A DNA stretch of 64,000 bases from an uncultured Prevotellaceae bacterium (GCA_902799905.1 CADCCB010000002.1:36810-100809), one strand, 5' to 3'. Positions 2 through 45,827 are shown, counted from the stretch's first letter. Numbers and translations: made by a program. The notes: a model not told the origin generated them from the sequence alone.

Positions 2-481
2 GTGTTTTCTGCTGATTCGCTTGGTAAGAGCGCAACTCTTCCACGTATCTCTCCTAATGGTCGTTATCTGATGTTTGCTATGGCGGAATATGGTGTCTTC
101 CATATATGGCATCGTGATGCCGACTTGTGGATGCTTGACCTTTCTACAGGTGTAGCACGCCCTGCAGAAGAACTCAATTCTCCTGATACGGAGAGTTATC
201 ACTCATGGTCATCAAATGGCAAATGGGTTATATTCAGCAGTCGCAGGGATGATGGGAACTATACTCGTCCGTTTATTGCCCATATTGACGAAAACGGAAG
301 TGGTACAAAGCCTTTCGAATTGCCTTGTGCCAATCCCGACTACCATCGTCAGTTCATGAAAAGCTATAACATCCCGGAGTTTATGCGAGGCCCCGTCATC
401 ATCAAACCACAAACCTTCGCTGATGTACTCAAACGCGATGGCGAACCTGTAAAATTCATTTCCACCGACCTCACACGCTGA
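2..481 (+). CDS. TolB-like/PD40 beta-propeller protein, C-terminal part (5' end outside the window)
   Basis: PD40-like motifs RISPNGRYLMF and SYHSWSSNGKWVIFSSRRDDG; the ORF is open at the window edge. Confidence 0.8.
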   Translation: MFSADSLGKSATLPRISPNGRYLMFAMAEYGVFHIWHRDADLWMLDLSTGVARPAEELNSPDTESYHSWSSNGKWVIFSSRRDDGNYTRPFIAHIDENGSGTKPFELPCANPDYHRQFMKSYNIPEFMRGPVIIKPQTFADVLKRDGEPVKFISTDLTR

Positions 482-610
482 CTGGCAGTGAGTCTCAGGA
501 ATATCCCTAAAATCAGACAATGGGAAGATAACGGCCTCCAAGGCCGCAAGATAGATAGTCCCCGCAAGGGCATCTACATCCAAAACGGACGTAAGGTCGT
601 GAAGAAGTGA
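482..610 (+). pseudogene. 42-codon in-frame extension after the TGA, encoding a Prevotella-type C-terminal secretion tail (gene remnant or readthrough segment)
   Basis: Translation after TGA 479-481 is LAVSLRNIPKIRQWEDNGLQGRKIDSPRKGIYIQNGRKVVKK*, which matches the LQGR...KGIYIxNGKKVV CTD pattern. Confidence 0.6.
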
Positions 611-643
611 ACTGGAAGTTCAAAGTTGTATACTAACAAGCAT

Positions 644-675
644 GGGCAGGACGAAAAATCCTGCCCTGTTTGTTT
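644..675 (+). terminator. Intrinsic terminator
   Basis: GGGCAGGA-7nt-TCCTGCCC followed by TGTTTGTTT. Confidence 0.7.
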
Positions 676-826
676 GCAGATTCGGAAATAATCGGGGAGG
701 TCGAAACTCAAGGAGGAGATGAACAAGCAAAGCAAGTCGTTTAGCACAAATTATAAAAAACATGTTATTTTCAGCGGAAACATAAAGAAAAAATAATATT
801 TCCGCTGATTATAAGAATATTTTTTG

Positions 827-834
827 TATATTTG
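827..834 (+). promoter_or_regulatory. Bacteroidota sigma-A -7 element
   Basis: TATATTTG fits TAnnTTTG; upstream inverted repeat TCAGCGGAAA (771-780) / TTTCCGCTGA (799-808). Confidence 0.65.
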
Positions 835-865
835 CAGCGAATTTCAATCACAAGGAGAAACATCT

Positions 866-2290
866 ATGATTATTGGACGTGAAAAAGAACAACGTGAACT
901 GCTGAGTCTTCTCGAAAAGGAGGAGTCGCAGTTTTGTGCCGTCTATGGTCGGCGGCGTGTAGGCAAGACATATCTCATTCGCGAGACCTTTAACTACCAG
1001 TTCTGCTTCCAGCACACAGGTGTGGCCAAAGGAACACTTCGCCAGCAACTGACTGCCTTCCGAAACTCCCTGATGGCAGCAGGCATGGACAAGTGCAACA
1101 TACCAAAAAGTTGGATTGAAGCCTTCGAACTGCTAAAACGGTTCATAAATAATGCTCCTGCGGGGAAAAAGGTGCTCTTTATCGACGAACTTCCATGGAT
1201 GGATACCCCCAAGGGTAATCTGATAGGTGCATTGGAAAGTTTCTGGAACGGTTGGGCTACAGCACGTCGGGAGAAAGACATCGTGTTGATTGTATGCGGC
1301 AGTGCCACTTCATGGATCAGCAAGAAACTCCTGAAGGACAAGGGAGGGCTTCGCGGAAGACTGACTCTCCGCGTAAAACTCGTTCCATTCACACTCAGAG
1401 AGTGTGAACTCTTTGCTCAGGGAGCCAACCTTGCCCTAGGCAAGAAGGACATACTGGAACTATACATGATTCTCGGTGGCATACCCTACTACTGGAGTTT
1501 CCTGAAGAAAGGATTGAGTGTAGCACAGAATGTGGACCAACTGTTCTTCACGGAGACAGCCCAGTTAAGAGACGAGTTTGAAGCGCTTTATGCTACATTG
1601 TTCAAACGCCCGGATAACTATCTCAAGGTTATCAAATGCCTGAGCGACGGCAGACGTTCCGGCATGACAAGGGAGGAAATACTGGTAGCGAGTAAACTCT
1701 CGGACGGAGGGACATTCTCCACCATATTGGAGGAATTGGAAGAGAGTGGTTTCATCCGTCATTTTGCCTCTGCCGATACTGCAGAGACAAATGCATTATA
1801 TCAGTTGATAGACAACTATACGCTGTTCTATTACCTCTGCATCAAAAAGAATGCTTTTAGCGATGAGCACTTTTGGCTCAACACCTGCACGTCGACATCT
1901 CATAACACATGGAAGGGACATGCCTTTGAGCGTGTTTGCCTCCAGCATGTTGCACAGATTAAAGCAGCCCTCGGTATCTCTGGCGTACAGACAAACGTGT
2001 GTTCATGGTTCGTCCGCGGCACAAAAGAACGGCAAGGAGCACAGATAGACTTAGTCATGCAACGGGCCGACGGCTTTACGGACATCTGCGAGATGAAACA
2101 TTCCGCAAACACCTTCTCCATAGACAATGATTACGCTAAGGACTTGCAAAACAAACTTGACGCATACCGAGAACTATCGAAGGACAAGCGCACCCTTCAT
2201 CTTGTCATGGTAACAACGAACGGTGTTGCTCACAACAACTACTACAACATGGTACAAAAAGAGATAATCATGGATGAGTTGTTTACCTAA
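866..2290 (+). CDS. AAA/archaeal-type ATPase (ATPase_2-like) with a central wHTH-like region and a C-terminal DUF234/PD-(D/E)xK-like region
   Basis: MIIGREKEQ start, Walker A GRRRVGKT, Walker B LFIDEL, C-terminal QIDLV...ICEMK; ATG 866 preferred over the TTG start at 824. Confidence 0.85.
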   Translation: MIIGREKEQRELLSLLEKEESQFCAVYGRRRVGKTYLIRETFNYQFCFQHTGVAKGTLRQQLTAFRNSLMAAGMDKCNIPKSWIEAFELLKRFINNAPAGKKVLFIDELPWMDTPKGNLIGALESFWNGWATARREKDIVLIVCGSATSWISKKLLKDKGGLRGRLTLRVKLVPFTLRECELFAQGANLALGKKDILELYMILGGIPYYWSFLKKGLSVAQNVDQLFFTETAQLRDEFEALYATLFKRPDNYLKVIKCLSDGRRSGMTREEILVASKLSDGGTFSTILEELEESGFIRHFASADTAETNALYQLIDNYTLFYYLCIKKNAFSDEHFWLNTCTSTSHNTWKGHAFERVCLQHVAQIKAALGISGVQTNVCSWFVRGTKERQGAQIDLVMQRADGFTDICEMKHSANTFSIDNDYAKDLQNKLDAYRELSKDKRTLHLVMVTTNGVAHNNYYNMVQKEIIMDELFT

Positions 2291-3194: not shown

Positions 3195-3271
3195 TAACTC
3201 TTAATTCTTAACTCTTAACTCCTACTCGCCGCAGGCGACAACTCTTAACTCTTAATTCTTAACTCTTAACT
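3195..3271. repeat. Heptamer tract (TTAACTC)n with an internal TCGCC-GCA-GGCGA hairpin
   Basis: Read directly; the tract supplies the rsmI stop codon. Confidence 0.9.
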
Positions 3272-3943
3272 AGTTCCGCTACCAGCAAGTACTATGACTA
3301 TCTCTCCTTTTGGAGCATGCTCCGTGAAATGGGCAATAACCTCCTGCAGCGATCCTCGCACACTCTCTTCATGCACCTTTGATATCTCGCGGCACACGCT
3401 GACGGGACGCTCCTGGCCGAAGACCTCGGCAAACTGCTGAAGCGTCTTTACCAGACGATAGGGTGATTCATAGAAGATCATGGTGCGCTGCTCATCGCGC
3501 AGGGATTCCAGTTTGGTCTGGCGACCTTTCTTCTGAGGCAGAAAGCCCTCGAAGGCAAAGCGGTCACATGGCAGGCCACTGCTCACCAGTGCAGGCACAA
3601 AGGCGGTGGCGCCAGGCAGGGTCTGCACCTCAACGCCTGCCCTTACCGCCTCACGCACCAAGAAGAAGCCCGGATCGCTGATACCTGGCGTGCCAGCATC
3701 ACTGATCAGGGCGACATTCTGTCCGGCCTGCAGTCGCTGCACGACTCCCGCACTCGTACCATGCTCGTTGAACTTATGGTGTGACATCAGTTGGTTCTTG
3801 ATGTCGAAATGCTTGAGCAAGATGCCCGAAGTACGGGTATCCTCCGCCAACACCAGGTCCACCTCCTTCAAGATACGGATGGCGCGCAGCGTCATGTCTT
3901 CCATATTCCCCACAGGCGTGGGTACAATGTACAATGTTCCCAT
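3266..3943 (-). CDS. rsmI: 16S rRNA (cytidine1402-2'-O)-methyltransferase
   Basis: LYIVPTPVGNMEDMT, AEDTRTS, SDAGTPGISDPG, FYESPYR and RE(I)SKVHEE motifs. Confidence 0.95.
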   Translation of the reverse strand: MGTLYIVPTPVGNMEDMTLRAIRILKEVDLVLAEDTRTSGILLKHFDIKNQLMSHHKFNEHGTSAGVVQRLQAGQNVALISDAGTPGISDPGFFLVREAVRAGVEVQTLPGATAFVPALVSSGLPCDRFAFEGFLPQKKGRQTKLESLRDEQRTMIFYESPYRLVKTLQQFAEVFGQERPVSVCREISKVHEESVRGSLQEVIAHFTEHAPKGEIVIVLAGSGTS

Positions 3944-4207
3944 TCAAGGAGCAAAATTACAAAATAATTGAGAATTAAGGACGAAGAATAAAGAATAATG
4001 AAAGATTTTAAAAATAATTATGAATTCAACTCTCGGAAGCGATTGACGATTTGGCGATTTCTTTCAGTCGCTTCGCTTGGTGAAAGCGCTGGCAGAGCAA
4101 TAACCCAATATTGAAATTGAAAAACAAATTATGAAAATGTAAATGGGCGAGGCCCCGCAAATTGTAAATTACAAACATCCGAAATTCAAATAAAAATTTT
4201 TTTTGCA

Positions 4208-4281
4208 AAAAAAGTATCACATCTATCACTTTTCCTTTATTTATCGTGGTTTAAACGATGATAGATATGGTGAAAGATGTG
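4208..4281 (-). repeat. Left terminal inverted repeat of the DUF6078-VapE cassette; internally self-complementary
   Basis: Its reverse complement aligns to 6813-6885 with 60 of 74 columns identical by manual count; internal IR CACATCTATCAC (4218-4229) / GTGAAAGATGTG (4270-4281). Confidence 0.85.
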
Positions 4282-4345
4282 CTACATTTTACATTATTTC
4301 ACACTATTTATGGGTAAAATGCTTGCAAAATCGATGATTTTTTAG

Positions 4346-4353
4346 TATCTTTG
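4346..4353 (+). promoter_or_regulatory. Bacteroidota -7 promoter element
   Basis: TATCTTTG with TTGC ~20 nt upstream. Confidence 0.65.
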
Positions 4354-4383
4354 TAGGGTAATTACCAATAATGATTCAGTAGC

Positions 4384-4818
4384 ATGGAAATAAAAGATTT
4401 TGATTTCAGTCAGGTATCGGCGGGCTATCGGCTCTGCTTCAACAGCCAGTGTGAACGATGCGGCGACTGCATTCGCTACGTAGCCGGACAGCATCTGCCC
4501 GCCAACATCGAAAGCGGCCCGGCCATCTATCCCAACGCACTCGCCGACGGCCAGTGCCACTACTTTGTCGAGGCGTGTGACATCAAGGCCGCCTGGGGAT
4601 TCGAGCCCCTCTATGCGCATGTGGAGCCCCATCATCGCGCTCCCATCCGCAAGAGCATCACGGCCTATCTAGGCAGCGTGGGCACCTACTACCGCTACGA
4701 CAAGGGTGAGCGCCGCCTGAACATCAAGCAGCAGCGTGACATCATGGACATCCTCGCCAAGTATGGCTACACGGACGGCCTGCACTTCGCCCACTACGAG
4801 GCATCCTACGACTTCTGA
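4384..4818 (+). CDS. DUF6078-like Cys-rich protein
   Basis: LCFNSQCERCGDCIRY Cys cluster, C..F, and YYRY..GER.L....Q..I motifs typical of this Bacteroidales family. Confidence 0.75.
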   Translation: MEIKDFDFSQVSAGYRLCFNSQCERCGDCIRYVAGQHLPANIESGPAIYPNALADGQCHYFVEACDIKAAWGFEPLYAHVEPHHRAPIRKSITAYLGSVGTYYRYDKGERRLNIKQQRDIMDILAKYGYTDGLHFAHYEASYDF

Positions 4819-4821
4819 ACA

Positions 4822-4928
4822 TGTTCCAGGCCTTGGAACAACTTATTCCACCCCTTGGAATATTTTGTTCCACCCTATGGAACACCCTGTTCCAGATAAT
4901 GGAACAACCCGTTACACCCTATGGAATG
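4822..4928. repeat. Array of five 19-bp palindromes (TGTTCCA-N5-TGGAACA) at an exact 22-bp period
   Basis: Units start at 4822, 4844, 4866, 4888 and 4910. Confidence 0.9.
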
Positions 4929-4935
4929 AAAAGCA

Positions 4936-6804
4936 ATGACAATGAATATAACTCAGATCAAAACCACCAAGCAGAACAAGTGCCACCTGAAGGTGACCAC
5001 TCTGGGCGAGACCATGAAGAGCGTGGCTGATGATGCCACCTTCCAAACGGTAGACATGCTGCGCACCTTCATGCGCTATGCCACGTCCTATTCGTCGTTC
5101 AAGTACATGCACCGCCTACCCTACATCCTGCCTGCGGCAGCCATGAAGGCCGACAAGGGCGGCAACCTCGTCGTCGTCCACAACAACGGCCTGATAACCC
5201 TGAGCGTCGGACCCTTCAACGACTTCGACGAGGCTGAAGCCATGAAACGCCATGCTGCCGCCCTGCCTATGACGGTGGCTGCCGTGCTAGGCAGCAGCGG
5301 CAAGACGGTGAAGATCATCGTCAGCGTGAGCCGCCCTGATGGTATCGTGCCGCAGGGTGAAGCCGAGGCCGAGCAACTGTTGCAGCAGGCCTGTCCGCTG
5401 CTGTGCCGCATCTACGCCATCATCGTGCCCACAGCCACCAACGACCGCACCGTCACCATCAGCGCCGCCCTGCCCAAGGGTGAGACCATGCTGCTGCACA
5501 CGGGCTTCCGCATGACCTACGACCCGCATCCGCTGCTCTGCGCCAATCCTGCGCCATTGCAGTTGTCTGAGAAGATGGCAGTCTTACAGGACTTGTCATC
5601 GACGGATGCCGCTGCCAACATGTCGGACGCCGACAATAAGTCGGCCTCGACCGTCAGCCAGAAGATGCTGGGGCTCATTCAGATGCTGCAGGAGCGCTAT
5701 GCCTTCCGCATGAACACCGTGATGGGCTACCCCGAGTACCGCTCGAAAGAGAAGTGGCACATTGGCTGGCAGCCCGTCGACGAGCGCGCACACAACTCGC
5801 TGGCTATGGAGGCACGACTGGCTGGTCTCGACGTGTGGGACCGCGACATCAACCGCTATCTGAAGTCGAACATGGTGCAGACCTACAACCCCATCGACGA
5901 ATATCTGTGGCAACTGAGTGGCAAATGGGATGGTACCGACCACATCGGACGGCTGGCACGCACCGTGCCCACCCGCAACGAGCACTGGCCCCGCTGGTTC
6001 CGCATCTGGTTTCTCGGCATGGTGGCACAGTGGCGCGGCATGACCCACCGCTACGGCAACGCCCTCGCGCCGCTGCTCATCTCGCGTCAGGGCTACAACA
6101 AGTCCACCTTCTGTAAGTCGCTCATTCCCATCGACTTGCAATGGGGCTACTGCGACAACCTGGTGCTCTCCGAGAAGAAAGCCGTGCTGCAGGCCATGAG
6201 CCAGTTCCTGCTCATCAACCTCGACGAGTTCAACCAGATCAGCCCCCGTGTGCAGGAGGGTTTCCTCAAGAACCTCATCCAGTTGGCATCGGTCAAGGTG
6301 AAGCGCCCCTATGGCAAGCACGTCGAGGAGTTTCCGCGACTGGCATCGTTCATCGCCACTGCCAACGTCACCGACATCCTGACCGACCCCACCGGAAACC
6401 GCCGTTTCATCGGCATCGAACTGACAGGACCCATCGACACCTCCTACCGCATCAACTACAACCAACTCTACGCGCAGGCTATGGCTTTGCTCGATCAAGG
6501 CGAGCCCTACTGGCTCGACGAAGAGCAGACGCGACTGGTGATGGAGTCGAACCTACAGTTCCAGCGCCGTTCGGCCGTAGAACTCTACTTCTTCGAGTGT
6601 TTCGCCATCCCAGACACCTTCAACGACGGCGAGTGGATGAGCCCCACAGCCATCTACCAGCACCTGCGCAAGGTGGCAGGCTCCGCCATCGGCAATGTGG
6701 GCATCGTCACCTTCGGCCGCTTCCTCTCGAACATCGACGGTCTCCAGCGCCGCCGCATCCGCTCCGGCAACCAGTATCTGCTGAAAAAACTCGACTTCCG
6801 CTAA
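4936..6804 (+). CDS. BT4734/BF3469 (VirE_N)-VapE family protein: degenerate primase-like N-terminus plus SF3-like helicase domain
   Basis: YNPIDEYL..L..KWDGTDHI, variant Walker A QGYNKST, Walker B LINLDEF, RLASFIATAN, TDPTGNRRF. Confidence 0.85.
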   Translation: MTMNITQIKTTKQNKCHLKVTTLGETMKSVADDATFQTVDMLRTFMRYATSYSSFKYMHRLPYILPAAAMKADKGGNLVVVHNNGLITLSVGPFNDFDEAEAMKRHAAALPMTVAAVLGSSGKTVKIIVSVSRPDGIVPQGEAEAEQLLQQACPLLCRIYAIIVPTATNDRTVTISAALPKGETMLLHTGFRMTYDPHPLLCANPAPLQLSEKMAVLQDLSSTDAAANMSDADNKSASTVSQKMLGLIQMLQERYAFRMNTVMGYPEYRSKEKWHIGWQPVDERAHNSLAMEARLAGLDVWDRDINRYLKSNMVQTYNPIDEYLWQLSGKWDGTDHIGRLARTVPTRNEHWPRWFRIWFLGMVAQWRGMTHRYGNALAPLLISRQGYNKSTFCKSLIPIDLQWGYCDNLVLSEKKAVLQAMSQFLLINLDEFNQISPRVQEGFLKNLIQLASVKVKRPYGKHVEEFPRLASFIATANVTDILTDPTGNRRFIGIELTGPIDTSYRINYNQLYAQAMALLDQGEPYWLDEEQTRLVMESNLQFQRRSAVELYFFECFAIPDTFNDGEWMSPTAIYQHLRKVAGSAIGNVGIVTFGRFLSNIDGLQRRRIRSGNQYLLKKLDFR

Positions 6805-6812
6805 TCATCCGT

Positions 6813-6885
6813 CACATCTGTCACCAATCTGTCACCCCACAAACCCCGATAAACAAAGGGAAGGTGACAGATGTGACACTTTTTT
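6813..6885 (+). repeat. Right terminal inverted repeat; contains a perfect 15-bp internal IR (6811-6825 / 6863-6877)
   Basis: GTCACATCTGTCACC ... GGTGACAGATGTGAC; homologous to the reverse complement of 4208-4281. Confidence 0.85.
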
Positions 6886-6993
6886 CAAAGAAAAAAATTA
6901 TTTTAAAAGTAGCAGCGCTGCATGCATCTATCTTCTAATCATCTGCCGCATCCATCCAACAAAAAATGCAAAATGATGAGAGCGGTAGCAAAT

Positions 6994-7021
6994 TTTTCAC
7001 TTTTCACTCTTCACTTTTCAC
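6994..7021. repeat. Heptamer tract (TTTTCAC)x4
   Basis: Read directly. Confidence 0.85.
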
Positions 7022-7031
7022 TTAAATTGAC

Positions 7032-7039
7032 TACCTTTG
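7032..7039 (+). promoter_or_regulatory. -7 promoter element only 4 nt from the tdk ATG
   Basis: TACCTTTG. Confidence 0.65.
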
Positions 7040-7043
7040 CACC

Positions 7044-7622
7044 ATGATTTCATATCCAGCAACAGGCGAGGCACACCGCCCAGGAAGAATAGAAGTAGTG
7101 TGCGGCTCGATGTTCTCGGGCAAAACGGAGGAACTGATACGCCGAATGCGACGCGCCCAGTTCGCCAAGCAACGGGTGGAGATTTTCAAACCCGCCATCG
7201 ATGTGCGCTATTCTGAAGAAGACGTGGTGAGCCACGACCAGAAGCATATTCAGTCGACGCCTATCGACTCGTCGGCCAGCATCCTGCTATTGGCCAACGA
7301 CATCGACGTGGTTGGCATCGACGAGGCACAGTTCTTCGACGACGGCATCGTCGAGGTGTGCAACACCTTGGCCAACCACGGTGTCCGCGTCATCGTGGCC
7401 GGACTCGACATGGACTTTAAGGGTGTGCCCTTCGGACCGATGCCTGCCCTCTGTGCCATAGCCGACGAGGTGACCAAGGTGCATGCCATCTGTGTGCGCT
7501 GCGGTGCCTTGGCCTACGTGAGTCATCGTAAGGTGGACAACGACAGACGGGTGCTGCTTGGCGAGACCCAGGAATATGAACCGCTCTGCCGCGAATGCTA
7601 CCAGAAAGCCACGCTTGGGTGA
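7044..7622 (+). CDS. tdk: Thymidine kinase
   Basis: [32 protein letters not shown] and YEPLCRECY Zn motifs. Confidence 0.95.
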
Positions 7623-7795
7623 TTTGAGGTTTGAGATTTGAGGTTTGAGGTTTCTTTCAGTCGCTTCGCTTGGTGAATGAGGTTTGAGATTTGAGGTTTA
7701 AGATTTGAGGTTTGAGGTTTCTTTCAGTCGCTTCGCTTGGTGAATGAGGTTTGAGATTTGGGGTTTGAGATTTGAGGTTTGAGATTTGAGGTTTT
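7620..7795. repeat. Composite heptamer repeat (TTTGAGR)n with two copies of a 27-nt cassette, 67-bp period
   Basis: TTTCTTTCAGTCGCTTCGCTTGGTGAA at 7651-7677 and 7718-7744; a third copy is at 4058-4084. Confidence 0.9.
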
Positions 7796-7797
7796 TT

Positions 7798-8910
7798 ATG
7801 ATGACATTGACAAATAAACCGATTACATTCGATAAATTCGTGCGATGGCTCGTCTGGGGCATCATCGTTCTGGCCGTAGTCTGCCTTATCAACTATCTGG
7901 GCAGCGTGCTGCTGCCATTTGCCGTGGCCTGGCTGCTGGCCTACCTGCTTTACCCTATTGTCAAGTTCGTGCAGTACCGCCTCCATGTACGCAATCGTGT
8001 ACTGAGCATCATCATCACCCTTGTGGGGGTCATTGCCCTCCTATTCGGCATTTCCTATCTCATCATCCCGCCGATGATAGAGCAATTCCAGCGACTGGGC
8101 AACCTGGTCACCATTTATATCCATTCAGCGGCCAACATCGACAGCATCCCTGAGGCAGTGGGCGAATGGACACAAAACCACCGTAAGGAACTGGAGGATT
8201 TCCTGCATAGCGACCGCTTCACCGATGGACTGAAAACCGCCCTGCCGCAGATGTTCAACGTCGTAGGCAAGACGGCCAACATCATCATCAGCATCGCGGC
8301 CTCGCTCATCACCTTATTATATATGTTCTTCATCCTGCTGGACTATGAGTACCTGACGGAGAACTGGATCAAGATCTTCCCAAAGAAGAGCCGTCCGTTC
8401 TGGCGCGAACTGGCTACCGATGCAGAACGGGCACTGAGCAACTATATCCGCGGTCAGGGACTGGTGGCACTCATCATGGGCATCCTCTTCTGCATAGGCT
8501 TCACCATTATCGACTTCCCCATGGCTATCGGCCTGGGCATCTTGATCGGCATCCTCGACCTGGTGCCCTATCTCCACACGTTCGCCCTCATCCCCACGGC
8601 CTTGCTGGCCCTGCTCAAGGCTGCTGACACAGGGCAGAACTTCTGGGTCATTTTCGCTATGGCCGTCGCCGTCTTTGCCATCGTACAGATCATCATCGAC
8701 ATGGTGGTAACGCCAAAAGTCATGGGCAAGGCCATGGGACTCAACCCTGCCATCCTGTTGCTATCGCTCTCCATCTGGGGCGCTTTGCTAGGGTTTATCG
8801 GCCTGATTATCGCCCTCCCGCTAACCACGCTCCTAATGGCCTACTACCAGCGCTACATCACGCGTGAAAACGAGGAAATCGCTGAAGAGGCAGAAAAATC
8901 ATCGGAATAA
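7798..8910 (+). CDS. AI-2E family transporter
   Basis: Multiple TM helices, YIRGQGLVAL, PKVMGKAMGLNPAILLLSL, GFIGLIIALP. Confidence 0.9.
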   Translation: MMTLTNKPITFDKFVRWLVWGIIVLAVVCLINYLGSVLLPFAVAWLLAYLLYPIVKFVQYRLHVRNRVLSIIITLVGVIALLFGISYLIIPPMIEQFQRLGNLVTIYIHSAANIDSIPEAVGEWTQNHRKELEDFLHSDRFTDGLKTALPQMFNVVGKTANIIISIAASLITLLYMFFILLDYEYLTENWIKIFPKKSRPFWRELATDAERALSNYIRGQGLVALIMGILFCIGFTIIDFPMAIGLGILIGILDLVPYLHTFALIPTALLALLKAADTGQNFWVIFAMAVAVFAIVQIIIDMVVTPKVMGKAMGLNPAILLLSLSIWGALLGFIGLIIALPLTTLLMAYYQRYITRENEEIAEEAEKSSE

Positions 8911-8976: not shown

Positions 8977-9049
8977 GATCCGCTAGCTCAGTCGGTAGAG
9001 CACAACACTTTTAATGTTGGGGTCTTGGGTTCGAACCCCAAGCGGATCA
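8977..9049 (+). tRNA. tRNA-Lys(TTT)
   Basis: Acceptor GATCCGC/GCGGATC, anticodon arm CAACA-CTTTTAA-TGTTG, GTTCGAA T-loop; promoter TACCTTTG at 8936-8943. Confidence 0.95.
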
Positions 9050-9050
9050 C

Positions 9051-9082
9051 AAAAGAGAGGCTTAAGGCCTCTCTTTTTGTTT
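9051..9082 (+). terminator. Intrinsic terminator after tRNA-Lys
   Basis: AAAAGAGAGG-loop-CCTCTCTTTT followed by TGTTT. Confidence 0.75.
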
Positions 9083-9255
9083 GCTTGGGGATCTCACCCA
9101 CACCTGGAACCTCCAGTTTCTCTTCTCTCGTAAAGCCCACGATTCTGCCCCTTTTTGTCGGCAGGATTTACAAAGAACATGAGTTTAATCGGATTCTTTG
9201 AAAAAAGTTTCTGAATCGTTTGGTCGTGTGGTTAAATTTAGTTACCTTTGCAGCG

Positions 9256-9516
9256 ATGAATAAGAAGGAAAAACTTATCAAGCGGTTCCGGACATTGCCC
9301 AAAGATTTTACCTTTGAAGAGGTAGAGGCATTGTTCAACGGCTGTGGCTTCACCCTGGAGAATAAAGGTGCCACATCTGGATCGCGAGTGAAGTTCTATA
9401 ACGAAAAGGATCAGAATTCGTATATCATGCACAAGCCCCATCCAAGTAACATCATCAAGGGCTACATGATGCGAGACATCTTGAACTATCTATTGAAGAA
9501 TGGCTATATAAAATAA
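9256..9516 (+). CDS. hicA: HicA-family toxin (type II TA)
   Basis: G..SGSRVKF...HKPHP motif, 86 aa, upstream of a hicB-like gene. Confidence 0.9.
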   Translation: MNKKEKLIKRFRTLPKDFTFEEVEALFNGCGFTLENKGATSGSRVKFYNEKDQNSYIMHKPHPSNIIKGYMMRDILNYLLKNGYIK

Positions 9517-9528
9517 GGAGGTACAATT

Positions 9529-9870
9529 ATGGGATATTTGAAGTATAAAGGCTACACAGGTAGCGTCGAGTATAGTGAAGAGGACAAATGCCTGTTTGGT
9601 AAGGTACAGGGCATGATGAGGGATAGCATCACATACGAGGGTGAGACCGTTGAGGAACTAACCAAGGACTTCGAGGGTGCTATTGATGACTACCTGCAGA
9701 TGTGTGAGGAGAAGGGCATCACACCCAGGAAACCTTATACTGGTGTGCTGAACGTCAGGTTAAGCCCAGAGATACATAGTGGTGCAGCAATGGCAGCCAG
9801 CAAGGAGGGCATCACCATCAACGCATTCATCAGAAATGCTGTTGCCCGTGCCTTGGGTATGGCACTCTAG
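9529..9870 (+). CDS. hicB: HicB-family antitoxin
   Basis: YKGYTGSVEYS, FEGAIDDYL, KPYTGVLNVRLSPEIH...S.NAFI (RHH). Confidence 0.9.
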   Translation: MGYLKYKGYTGSVEYSEEDKCLFGKVQGMMRDSITYEGETVEELTKDFEGAIDDYLQMCEEKGITPRKPYTGVLNVRLSPEIHSGAAMAASKEGITINAFIRNAVARALGMAL

Positions 9871-9925
9871 TTTCATGCTCAAAAAATTCCGCCAGTTGGG
9901 GCGCAATCCCAAGCGGATCATAAGC

Positions 9926-9969
9926 AAAAAGGCTCGAAGTGAAAGATATTTCAAACTTCGAGCCTTTTT
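9926..9969. terminator. Bidirectional terminator
   Basis: AAAAAGGCTCGAAGT ... ACTTCGAGCCTTTTTT between convergent genes. Confidence 0.8.
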
Positions 9970-45408: not shown

Positions 45409-45448
45409 CAATGTGATTACTGCACACCATGATGCAAGGGAGGAACAG

Positions 45449-45558
45449 GTAACACATGTAACAGATAAATTCACAAAATAGCCTCCCGCGTACCGTGCGC
45501 GCGTGTACGCGTGAAGGATTTTTCTAAAAACATCTGTTACATCTGTTACATCTGTTAC
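45449..45558. repeat. Nonamer inverted repeats (GTAACASAT x2 / ATCTGTTAC x3) around a GC palindrome
   Basis: 45449-45466 and 45532-45558; CGCGTAC..GTACGCG at 45487-45511. Confidence 0.85.
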
Positions 45559-45559
45559 A

Positions 45560-45667
45560 GTAAGAGATGCCTCTTTAGGGGGTAAAGTATGCTACTTTAG
45601 GAGGTAAGGAATGCTAGTTTACCCCTGTAAAGTGCCATTCCTTACTGTCGAAACAAGCATTCCTTAC
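45560..45667. repeat. Array of ~19-bp imperfect palindromes (GTAARG-N7-CTTTAS-like) at ~22-bp period
   Basis: Units start at 45560, 45582, 45604, 45627 and 45649. Confidence 0.75.
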
Positions 45668-45827
45668 TGCCGTAGAAGGCATCGGAACGACCGTTAAAGA
45701 TATATAGTTACCAACGCACCTGCGACTTTGCAATGTCTGGATAGCAAAACGCATGGTATGACAACAACAATCCCGAACCAACAAGTGATTCGGGATTAAC
45801 TGTTTTGAGTGTTCAGAAATTTGGTTG

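Follow-up and report, generated by a model that had tools for sequence, protein, structure and literature searches.

Genes of the BT4734/VapE type are among the commonest "hypothetical" or "virulence-associated" genes of gut and rumen Bacteroidales, and we found no description of their role on the chromosome. One of them lies in a 64,000-nt stretch of DNA from an uncultured Prevotellaceae bacterium (the window; contig C2:36810-100809 of a 3.4-Mb genome in 89 contigs, with rumen Prevotella as its relatives in public data), within a 2.7-kb block between two housekeeping genes, rsmI-like and tdk. The gene content of this block is a primase-helicase (VapE) gene and a DUF6078 gene, and the locus raises the question of what kind of unit they form. 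The first-pass annotation, made from the sequence alone, had seen hairpin-forming inverted ends and no transposase, and proposed a distinct class of small Bacteroidota mobile or self-replicating cassette. We favor, with about even confidence, the view that this is a stand-alone replicon cassette, integrated in the chromosome, whose terminal arms and palindrome array would be its own origin-type sites, by analogy with known initiator systems, and which would be mobile.

Inverted, fold-back arms bound the cassette

A repeat search returned an ungapped inverted repeat of 78 nt at the two ends of the block (4189-4266 and 6827-6904; 76% complementary), and gapped local alignment extended the match to ~97 columns (4184-4281 against 6813-6907); the arms are 76-79% identical. 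The alignment score of 86 compares with 16.6 ± 2.3 for 2000 shuffles (z ~30) and with a maximum of 42 among 2432 real 170-nt segments of the window, taken on both strands, and thus confirms the inverted ends first described. Each arm also folds back on itself, as first noted: the right arm contains a perfect 15-bp stem (6811-6825/6863-6877) around a 37-nt loop, the left arm contains a 21-nt stem at 86% (4209-4229/4270-4290), and none of 200 dinucleotide shuffles folds as well as either arm in the form of single-stranded DNA (z = −5.2 and −3.4). The same fold-back lies on opposite strands at the two cassette ends, and at both ends the stem-loop is followed by an outward T-run.

The left arm is composed, from the outside inward, of an A/T tract (T8GCA7), GTATCAC ATCTATCAC, a ~40-nt spacer with CGTGGTTTAAACG, and inverted copies GATAGATATGGTGAAAGATGTG. 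The right arm reads GTCAC ATCTGTCAC CA ATCTGTCAC, a 37-nt spacer (CCCCACAAACCCCGATAAACAAAGGGAAG), inverted GGTGACAGATGTGAC, T6CAAAGA7 and an A/T tract, and holds two opposed iteron-like sets: three GTCAC-containing repeats at 6808-6836 and an inverted pair at 6863-6877. Judged from one of the gene-less copies described below, homology of the left arm may extend outward to ~4158. The nonamer ATCTRTCAC, from which both ends had been said to be built, is not enriched genome-wide (59 found, 50 expected), and a scan of the bacterium's own genome found its clusters confined to the cassette, a gene-less copy on contig C4, and contigs C31, C7 and C5. The C31 cluster is a short palindrome just 5' of another VapE-like gene fragment, the C7 cluster is a short palindrome near a contig end, and the C5 cluster is a pair of direct copies.

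Between the arms we found what had been annotated: a promoter, a DUF6078-like gene, a palindrome array and the VapE gene (Table 1). As first reported, no transposase, integrase or clear target-site duplication is visible. Gene tables list no transposase or integrase gene within ~5 kb on either side of the cassette; Pfam, PHROG and PADLOC detect no transposase or recombinase domain in the cassette proteins; and no direct-repeat att sites were found at the cassette, where only two genes lie between the arms. The tips can be placed to a precision of a few nt; no direct repeat was seen beside them in the window copy, in eight relatives or in the miniature described below at four of its sites. No Rfam family matches the cassette.

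The unit and its gene-less derivatives are dispersed

The unit, together with deletion derivatives that consist of arm and array only, has been copied to many genome sites. In the bacterium's own genome, a ~485-bp copy (C4:138-625) has neither complete open reading frame (ORF). Between its left and right arms it retains the promoter as far as the −7 box, the C-terminal ~21 codons of the DUF6078 ORF (the final ~65 bp) and the array. At the contig start, the left tip of this miniature is abutted by the C-terminus of an ISL3-like transposase and an insertion sequence (IS) end, and there are metagenome contigs that lack the IS at the same site. Many miniatures occur in rumen metagenomes, and the contigs place this same miniature, with the same two internal deletion junctions, between at least four different flank pairs. 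Because the same two junctions recur at different flanks, the miniature was copied as a unit after it arose.

A second genome of the same genus (G258; 79% complete) carries one full cassette of the same arm type, with a VapE 73% identical, plus at least seven gene-less copies: two miniatures (one complete, one at a contig end), an orphan array and four modules of the "one arm + array" layout. The four modules (L158, L160, L161 and L164, on C90, C48, C71 and C49) each comprise one arm, a spacer and the array, with the second arm missing, and end 60-120 bp before a host promoter reading away, in one case 5' of the trigger factor gene. A module of this layout also adjoins a tRNA gene in the window (Table 1); in it, inverted GTAACA..GTAACAGAT is separated from three copies of ATCTGTTAC by a spacer that includes a GC palindrome, and a second array of ~22-bp period follows. 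A scan for the hairpin pattern matched 12 of 401 same-genus genomes, and a reversed-pattern control matched one.

Comparison of copies places the ends of the conserved unit a few nt past the outer T/A runs, with tips that read ATAAT(TATG) / CATAA(T) in the miniature and CTACAnAAAG-T6-8 in other classes. The gene-less copies are short, non-coding, inverted-ended, present at multiple sites and derived from a longer element, as expected of miniature inverted-repeat transposable elements (MITEs), but their full-length partners encode only DUF6078 and VapE and no transposase. The neighbor genes of 25 cassettes hardly ever coincide, and a context is common to no more than three or four pairs of loci. 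No transposase or integrase is linked in ~23 of these 25 contexts, and an integrase adjoins only two cassettes, both of one shared context.

The insertion is fixed within its species

We found rsmI and/or tdk in all 24 same-genus genomes searched. Because the two genes, where they share a contig, are usually 100-300 bp apart, the site is empty in other species, whose homologous cassettes lie elsewhere. The empty sites anticipated by the first-pass annotation were thus found in other species but not in the cassette's own, where it is fixed: at least ten same-species contigs with an identical Tdk or RsmI span the site, all carry the cassette in the same orientation at 98-100% identity, and neither an empty allele nor an extrachromosomal form was seen among the same-species assemblies, which in part counts against the first-pass proposal. 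The ratio of non-synonymous to synonymous substitution rates (dN/dS) for VapE within the species is 0.035-0.075, and DUF6078 has zero non-synonymous changes at dS ~0.05. The cassette is therefore kept intact in this species by purifying selection. Its apparent lack of DUF6078 in strain L171 proved to be a gene-calling difference, the ORF being intact.

No clean filled/empty pair that would fix the tips was found, same-genus rsmI-tdk intergenic DNA being too diverged to place a junction, and a search with the flanks of the G258 miniature retrieved no close relative. A metagenome contig considered as an empty site (L276) matches the genome at 99%, but the region is rearranged; contigs with the gene adjoining the C4-type miniature all have the filled spacing. 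In a different same-genus species (G018; L071, C3:1591500-1596000), the rsmI-tdk gap is filled by unrelated DNA of ~3 kb with small ORFs, and this gap may be permissive to insertion.

Inverted arms recur in a cassette family of rumen Prevotellaceae

A homologue scan of species-representative genomes yielded 38 loci with proteins 40-62% identical, nearly all from rumen Prevotellaceae. We searched each for an inverted repeat (E ≤ 1e-4 in a 2.5 kb × 0.66 kb search, upstream site against stop-codon site) and found an arm pair, of up to 124 nt, in 26 of the 38. Long arms of 77-124 nt, at 69-100% identity, occur in 16 loci, and in most long-arm homologues the right arm starts within ~±15 nt of the helicase stop codon. 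The prediction of paired inverted ends across homologues therefore held for most loci, but the words within the arms differ between lineages, and include TTGCCAC/GTGGCAA, TGCATACAC, TCTACATTG, CTTCCGCT, ATATCAC and AATGTCAC. All follow one build, in which a 30-40-nt spacer separates direct copies (two or three, spaced ~10-11 bp) from inverted copies and an A/T tract lies outermost. Arms are near-identical, spacers included (95-100%), in some elements, and many others have diverged to 70-80%.

Two paralogues in the bacterium's own genome vary this plan. At C7:45645-47281, 97-nt arms (82%) with CGGGAGGGA words and the loop CCGATATACAAAGGG surround a 408-aa, helicase-only VapE gene, and GTTTGAACGCTCCAAACTG-type palindromes form an array immediately beyond the right arm. 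At C45:7975-8342, 71-nt arms (83%) with GTGTCAT words enclose only a 226-bp palindrome array, and the pair lies directly 5' of a 711-aa BT4734-like gene that the arms do not flank. To judge from this sequence layout, the C45 arrangement fits a cis site of the gene better than transposon ends. In L081, an AAA-type ATPase-like gene (389-1711, minus strand; ~390-440 aa) lies between the left arm and DUF6078, and arms can therefore enclose cargo. In several iteron classes, alternating GC runs (GTACGCGCGCG, CACGCGCGCACGCGCGC), many of them preceded by TATAAT, lie at the arm tips or immediately beyond (Table 1).

Literature on the protein family, on the mechanism of Staphylococcus aureus pathogenicity islands (SaPIs), and on arm, DUF6078 and DUF3874 topics yielded no description of the cassettes, the arms, the DUF6078 partner or the miniatures. 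The cassette family is widespread and apparently undescribed.

VapE resembles self-loading replicative primase-helicases

By its sequence, the protein is a member of the BT4734-like AEP/VapE/DUF3874 family. It contains a BT4734-like archaeo-eukaryotic primase (AEP) domain at residues 59-161 (PF08800, E = 5.6e-15), a VapE/superfamily 3 (SF3)-type helicase domain at 330-542 (PF05272, E = 5.9e-33) and DUF3874 at 546-615 (PF12990, E = 3.3e-15), all past curated cut-offs, and RefSeq calls plasmid homologues "BT4734/BF3469 family protein". BT4734-like proteins form a stand-alone AEP family with the architecture AEP-VirE-DUF3874 (PMC5862659, PMC11724360).

The sole sequence match of VapE in the PDB is 7pds. 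An AlphaFold model built on an alignment of 26 sequences (predicted local distance difference test, pLDDT, 82) has as its best fold match the same entry ("PriRep1 with dsDNA", the Rep1-DNA complex of PMC9371898; E = 2e-17, template modeling (TM) score 0.60 on the target), followed by the NrS-1 helicase region, African swine fever virus PrimPol, monkeypox virus E5/D5, papillomavirus E1 and MCM. PHROG matches are to helicase/primase families, and in PADLOC the N-terminal domain matches a CRISPR-associated PrimPol profile. The SF3-like, replication-type character first assigned to VapE is upheld by the sequence and fold match to 7pds, and these data suggest that it is a replicative SF3/D5-type primase-helicase with a self-loading initiator fold. 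Walker B (LINLDEF) is invariant in the family alignment, and Walker A reads GYNKST in the window clade and GDGKT outside it. Within the clade, identity is 75-90% for the helicase core and falls to 38-48% for the N- and C-terminal domains. The proposed analogy with the inverted terminal repeats and Rep protein of parvoviruses lacks support in its defining element: the N-terminal domain is AEP/PrimPol-like, and no conserved H-x-H pair (HUH) was seen in the VapE family alignment, judged by eye with no search aimed at the motif.

A phased palindrome array and DUF6078 accompany VapE

The likely promoter 5' of DUF6078 resembles the Bacteroidota consensus, −33 TTTG / −7 TAnnTTTG, and was identified by eye. 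Downstream of DUF6078, the array has a period of exactly 22 bp, a spacing shared by classical plasmid iterons, and its last palindrome ends 8 nt before the VapE start codon. Nearly all 38 homologous loci have a 21-22-bp-phased palindrome array (mostly TGTYCCA-N5-TGGRACA) 5' of the helicase gene, DUF6078-less loci included. By analogy, the array is iteron- or operator-like and would be a second class of putative binding site; as loci that lack DUF6078 also keep it, it is probably read by VapE or a host protein.

DUF6078 is encoded 5' of VapE in ~30 of the 38 loci and has four invariant Cys and the motif G-x-YYRY-x2-GER-x-L-x-P-x-QQ. Its structure model is confident (pLDDT 90.8), with no solved structural relative found, and its C-terminal helices weakly resemble helix-turn-helix regulators in model comparison. 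The four invariant Cys and these weak matches suggest a small zinc-containing DNA-binding protein. We rejected the idea of a hidden IS200/IS605-type transposase, as TnpA matches reach a TM score of only ~0.2 at a probability of 0.02-0.05.

A model of the cassette as a replicon

In SaPIs, the origin directly follows rep and is made up of 6-12 penta- or hexanucleotide iterons; these form two sets of opposite orientation that flank a central region, and the self-loading Rep helicase reads them through a winged helix in its C-terminal domain (PMC9371898). Because the right arm has the position and build of a SaPI origin, we read its hairpin as a by-product of opposed iterons. The earlier suggestion of hairpin origins is supported as regards the origin-like build of the ends, but two opposed iteron sets of the SaPI kind, on duplex DNA, describe the hairpins better.

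We propose that the cassette's one universal gene product would act as a self-loading initiator/primase-helicase of the SaPI Rep, NrS-1 or poxvirus D5 type. Each arm would be an origin-type site on duplex DNA, with opposed GTCAC / ATCTRTCAC iterons about one helical turn apart, a spacer and an A/T tract; one such site would lie directly after the helicase stop codon and its inverted copy 5' of the promoter. The five 22-bp-phased palindromes would form a second class of phased sites, either iteron or operator. VapE would bind these sites through its fast-evolving N- and C-terminal domains, perhaps with DUF6078, and binding would let DNA synthesis start locally. Circularization would join the two arms into one large palindrome of iterons, A/T tract and iterons. 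The cut-and-join step seems more likely to take a replication-coupled or host- or helper-supplied route than to involve a classical transposase.

Several observations weigh against this model. Binding, replication and movement are all argued by analogy, and an origin model leaves insertion unexplained. Primase activity of the VapE clade is doubtful, judged against AEP catalytic motifs I (DhD/E), II (sxH, or K in this family) and III (hD/E), because the strand where motif I is expected (GLITLSV) shows no canonical DxD and because acidic residues of other Prevotella members (the E of PAAEF and the D of GADG) are replaced in the window clade; the lysine of "SVK" is unconserved across the family, and the only invariant motif residue is the D of FRMTxD. 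(Distinct AEP motif patterns have been reported for the BT4734-type family; PMC11724360.) The spacer within each arm is not notably A/T-rich, and conservation of the loop motif CCGATnnnCAAAGGG across iteron classes hints at another, common factor. Arm words are also not strictly tied to either protein, because one cassette (L247) with a VapE 44% identical, a DUF6078 27% identical and a different array bears this nonamer and loop as well. In the model's favor, a copy that shares the iteron word is 60% identical in the C-terminal domain, against 38% for a copy with another word (helicase cores, 90% and 87%), but strict co-variation of arm words with a protein domain was rejected, as phylogeny confounds it and L247 contradicts it. 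The "one arm + array" modules that recur beside host promoters do not fit neatly. Finally, the pattern of a circle or head-to-head junction gave 0 matches in metagenome contigs, and no free form was found in plasmid and phage collections, whose homologues are only 30-52% identical and lie on large Bacteroidales plasmids or unverified virome scaffolds; of two scaffolds examined, one (L288) has the cassette embedded in other DNA. The proposed distinct cassette class is thus supported by recurrence at many sites with gene-less derivatives, but not by any circular or hairpin-ended linear form.

Other explanations

The miniatures invite a different account, in which the cassette is a non-autonomous transposon with terminal inverted repeats, similar to a cargo-bearing MITE. 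Its tips would be recognized by a transposase or recombinase encoded at an unlinked site, by the host or by another element, and VapE and DUF6078 would be passengers or function after insertion. The true inverted ends, the intergenic insertions at many sites and the movement of end-retaining miniatures are all consistent with this, as are tip motifs (CTACAnAAAG-T6-8, ATAAT-like) common to the iteron classes and the occurrence of one arm word with very different proteins. We nevertheless consider it unlikely, given the rarity of linked transposases or integrases, full partners of the miniatures that encode just VapE and DUF6078, the lack of a visible target duplication at four sites, and arms that are ~100-nt phased iterons starting at the helicase stop codon and that, at C45, flank an array only. 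More radically, and in line with the first-pass proposal, the primase-helicase, with or without DUF6078, could mobilize the element itself by acting on single-stranded fold-back ends, for example through inward priming, copy-out and reinsertion. VapE is the only universal protein of a clearly spread unit, the ends form stable DNA hairpins, no target duplication was seen, and the 95-100% identity of arms and spacers in some elements is expected if both ends are regenerated from one template; because the fold-back lies on opposite strands at the two ends, priming would run inward across the unit. A parallel for this scheme comes from IncQ plasmids, where a helicase and an AEP-fold primase work with inverted hairpins for single-strand initiation. 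It is distinctly unlikely in view of the absence of a recognizable nuclease or joining domain (HUH, DDE, tyrosine or serine recombinase), a DUF6078 without a fold match, AEP catalytic motifs that look degenerate, the divergence of many arms to 70-80%, and the failure to find free linear or circular copies in metagenome contigs or plasmid and phage collections. The general claim of a new mobile-element class, whose primase-helicase (perhaps with DUF6078) on inverted iteron/fold-back ends copies the unit out and leads to its reinsertion with no transposase or integrase, and whose miniatures are non-autonomous parasites, seems to us quite unlikely.

Inverted repeats that bound a unit could also mark a segment flipped by a site-specific recombinase, like the invertible promoters of Bacteroides or shufflons, and Bacteroidales use many trans-acting invertases. 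This is scarcely credible here: orientation relative to rsmI and tdk is single in the same-species spanning contigs, flipping would change nothing for a unit with its own internal promoter, and the arms are only 76-79% identical. The fixation of the cassette at one site in all same-species assemblies, its strong purifying selection, and stem-loops with outward T-runs in both arms would instead suit a domesticated, immobile host module, for example an anti-phage or anti-plasmid device or a local regulator, with arms that act as insulating bidirectional terminators or operators. The PADLOC match of the N-terminal domain points the same way, as do VirE-N proteins reported in defense contexts (PMC11724360). 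No defense gene is attached, however, contexts in other species are unrelated, gene-less copies multiply, and matching iteron words are kept on both sides although terminators have no need of them; we judge this reading improbable.

If the replicon model is right and the arms are working origins, these chromosomes would carry dispersed private origins fired in trans by one protein, which could affect local copy number, genome stability and mobilization. Should the replication protein drive movement as well, transposition would proceed here without a known recombinase. The BT4734/VapE family in any case gains a concrete anatomy of self-contained cassettes with inverted iteron arms, phased palindromes, many sites and candidate origin-only miniatures, and VapE together with a miniature (arms + array) offers a candidate minimal replicon for genetic work in Prevotella and Bacteroides.

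Features of the locus and its surroundings

The rsmI-like methylase gene and the thymidine kinase gene point away from each other and are 3.1 kb apart. On both sides of this region (4060-4085 and 7623-7800), TTTCTTTCAGTCGCTTCGCTTGGTGAA within GAGGTTTGAGATTTGAG tandem repeats looks like a short dispersed intergenic repeat. A promoter-proximal repeat, TTCACTTTTCACTCTTCACTTTTCACTTAAATTGACTACCTTTGCACC, lies 5' of tdk (6980-7043), with copies 87-96% identical on at least six other contigs of the genome and in related genomes, and may be a dispersed promoter-carrying repeat. Farther along the window, gene tables list a HicA/HicB pair downstream of an AI-2E transporter gene (9037-9969).

Table 1. Cassette, flanking genes and related features (window positions unless a locus is named)
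Feature	Position	Strand	Basis and remarks
rsmI-like TP_methylase gene	3266-3943	minus	Pfam
Left arm	4188-4293	.	inverted copy of right arm; repeat search, alignment, folding
Likely Bacteroidota-type promoter	4323-4353	+	TTG at 4323-4325, TATCTTTG at 4346-4353; 30 nt 5' of DUF6078 start codon; by eye
DUF6078 gene, 144 aa	4384-4818	+	Pfam, 1e-30
Array of five 19-bp palindromes, TGTTCCA-N5-TGGAACA	4822-4927	.	sequence and repeat search
Primase-helicase (VapE) gene, 622 aa	4936-6804	+	Pfam BT4734-like_N + VapE-like + DUF3874
Right arm	6805-6905	.	begins 1 nt past VapE stop codon
Thymidine kinase (tdk) gene	7044-7622		Pfam
Gene-less "one arm + array" module	45440-45680	.	adjoins tRNA gene; sequence reading
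Alternating GC runs	L080, L081, L092 and L112, left flanks; L088, both arms; window, 45487-45511		

Comparison with known systems

Casposons and Polintons resemble the cassette in having terminal inverted repeats around a replication protein gene, but carry an integrase (Cas1 or retroviral-type) and make target duplications, neither of which is seen here. The parvoviral system combines an SF3-class helicase (Rep, or NS1) with terminal palindromes capable of folding back; the cassette, by contrast, has no recognizable HUH nicking domain, is a chromosomally integrated duplex with loops of 37-40 nt, and yielded no hairpin-ended linear form. Satellite phage P4 has its alpha protein with ori and crr, and the IncQ plasmid RSF1010 has oriV iterons with inverted ssiA/ssiB hairpins. 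Both are primase-helicase-type systems that, like the proposed replicon, need two separated or inverted cis sites and a run of ~20-22-bp iterons. They differ in being free replicons (P4 with its own integrase), and their proteins are unrelated in detail.

The BT4734/BF3469 family with AEP-VirE-DUF3874 architecture was reportedly described by Iyer et al. in 2005. Its members share the three-domain architecture and Pfam families of VapE (PMC5862659, PMC11724360), and the literature that we found covers the proteins only, with no arms, arrays, DUF6078 partner or gene-less copies described. BrickBuilt MITEs of Porphyromonas gingivalis (PMC4596501) are, like the miniatures, intergenic, gene-less, bounded by inverted repeats, a few hundred bp long and present in several copies, with 22-23-nt tandem repeats; their 12-bp ends match IS5-family transposases and they have 4-bp target duplications, whereas cassette arms are ~100-nt iteron clusters with no transposase partner.

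SaPI Rep/ori modules (Rep1, PriRep5; PDB 7PDS; PMC9371898) share the helicase fold, a C-terminal DNA-reading domain and opposed iterons directly after the rep stop codon, and may likewise have a primase fused to the helicase. SaPIs are ~15-kb islands with an integrase, an excisionase, regulators, packaging genes and one origin; the cassettes are 1.6-3 kb and without a recombinase, and add an inverted upstream arm, a 22-bp palindrome array, a BT4734-like AEP domain, DUF3874 and a DUF6078 partner. What is new in the cassette relative to known Rep/ori modules is that it stands alone and that it disperses.

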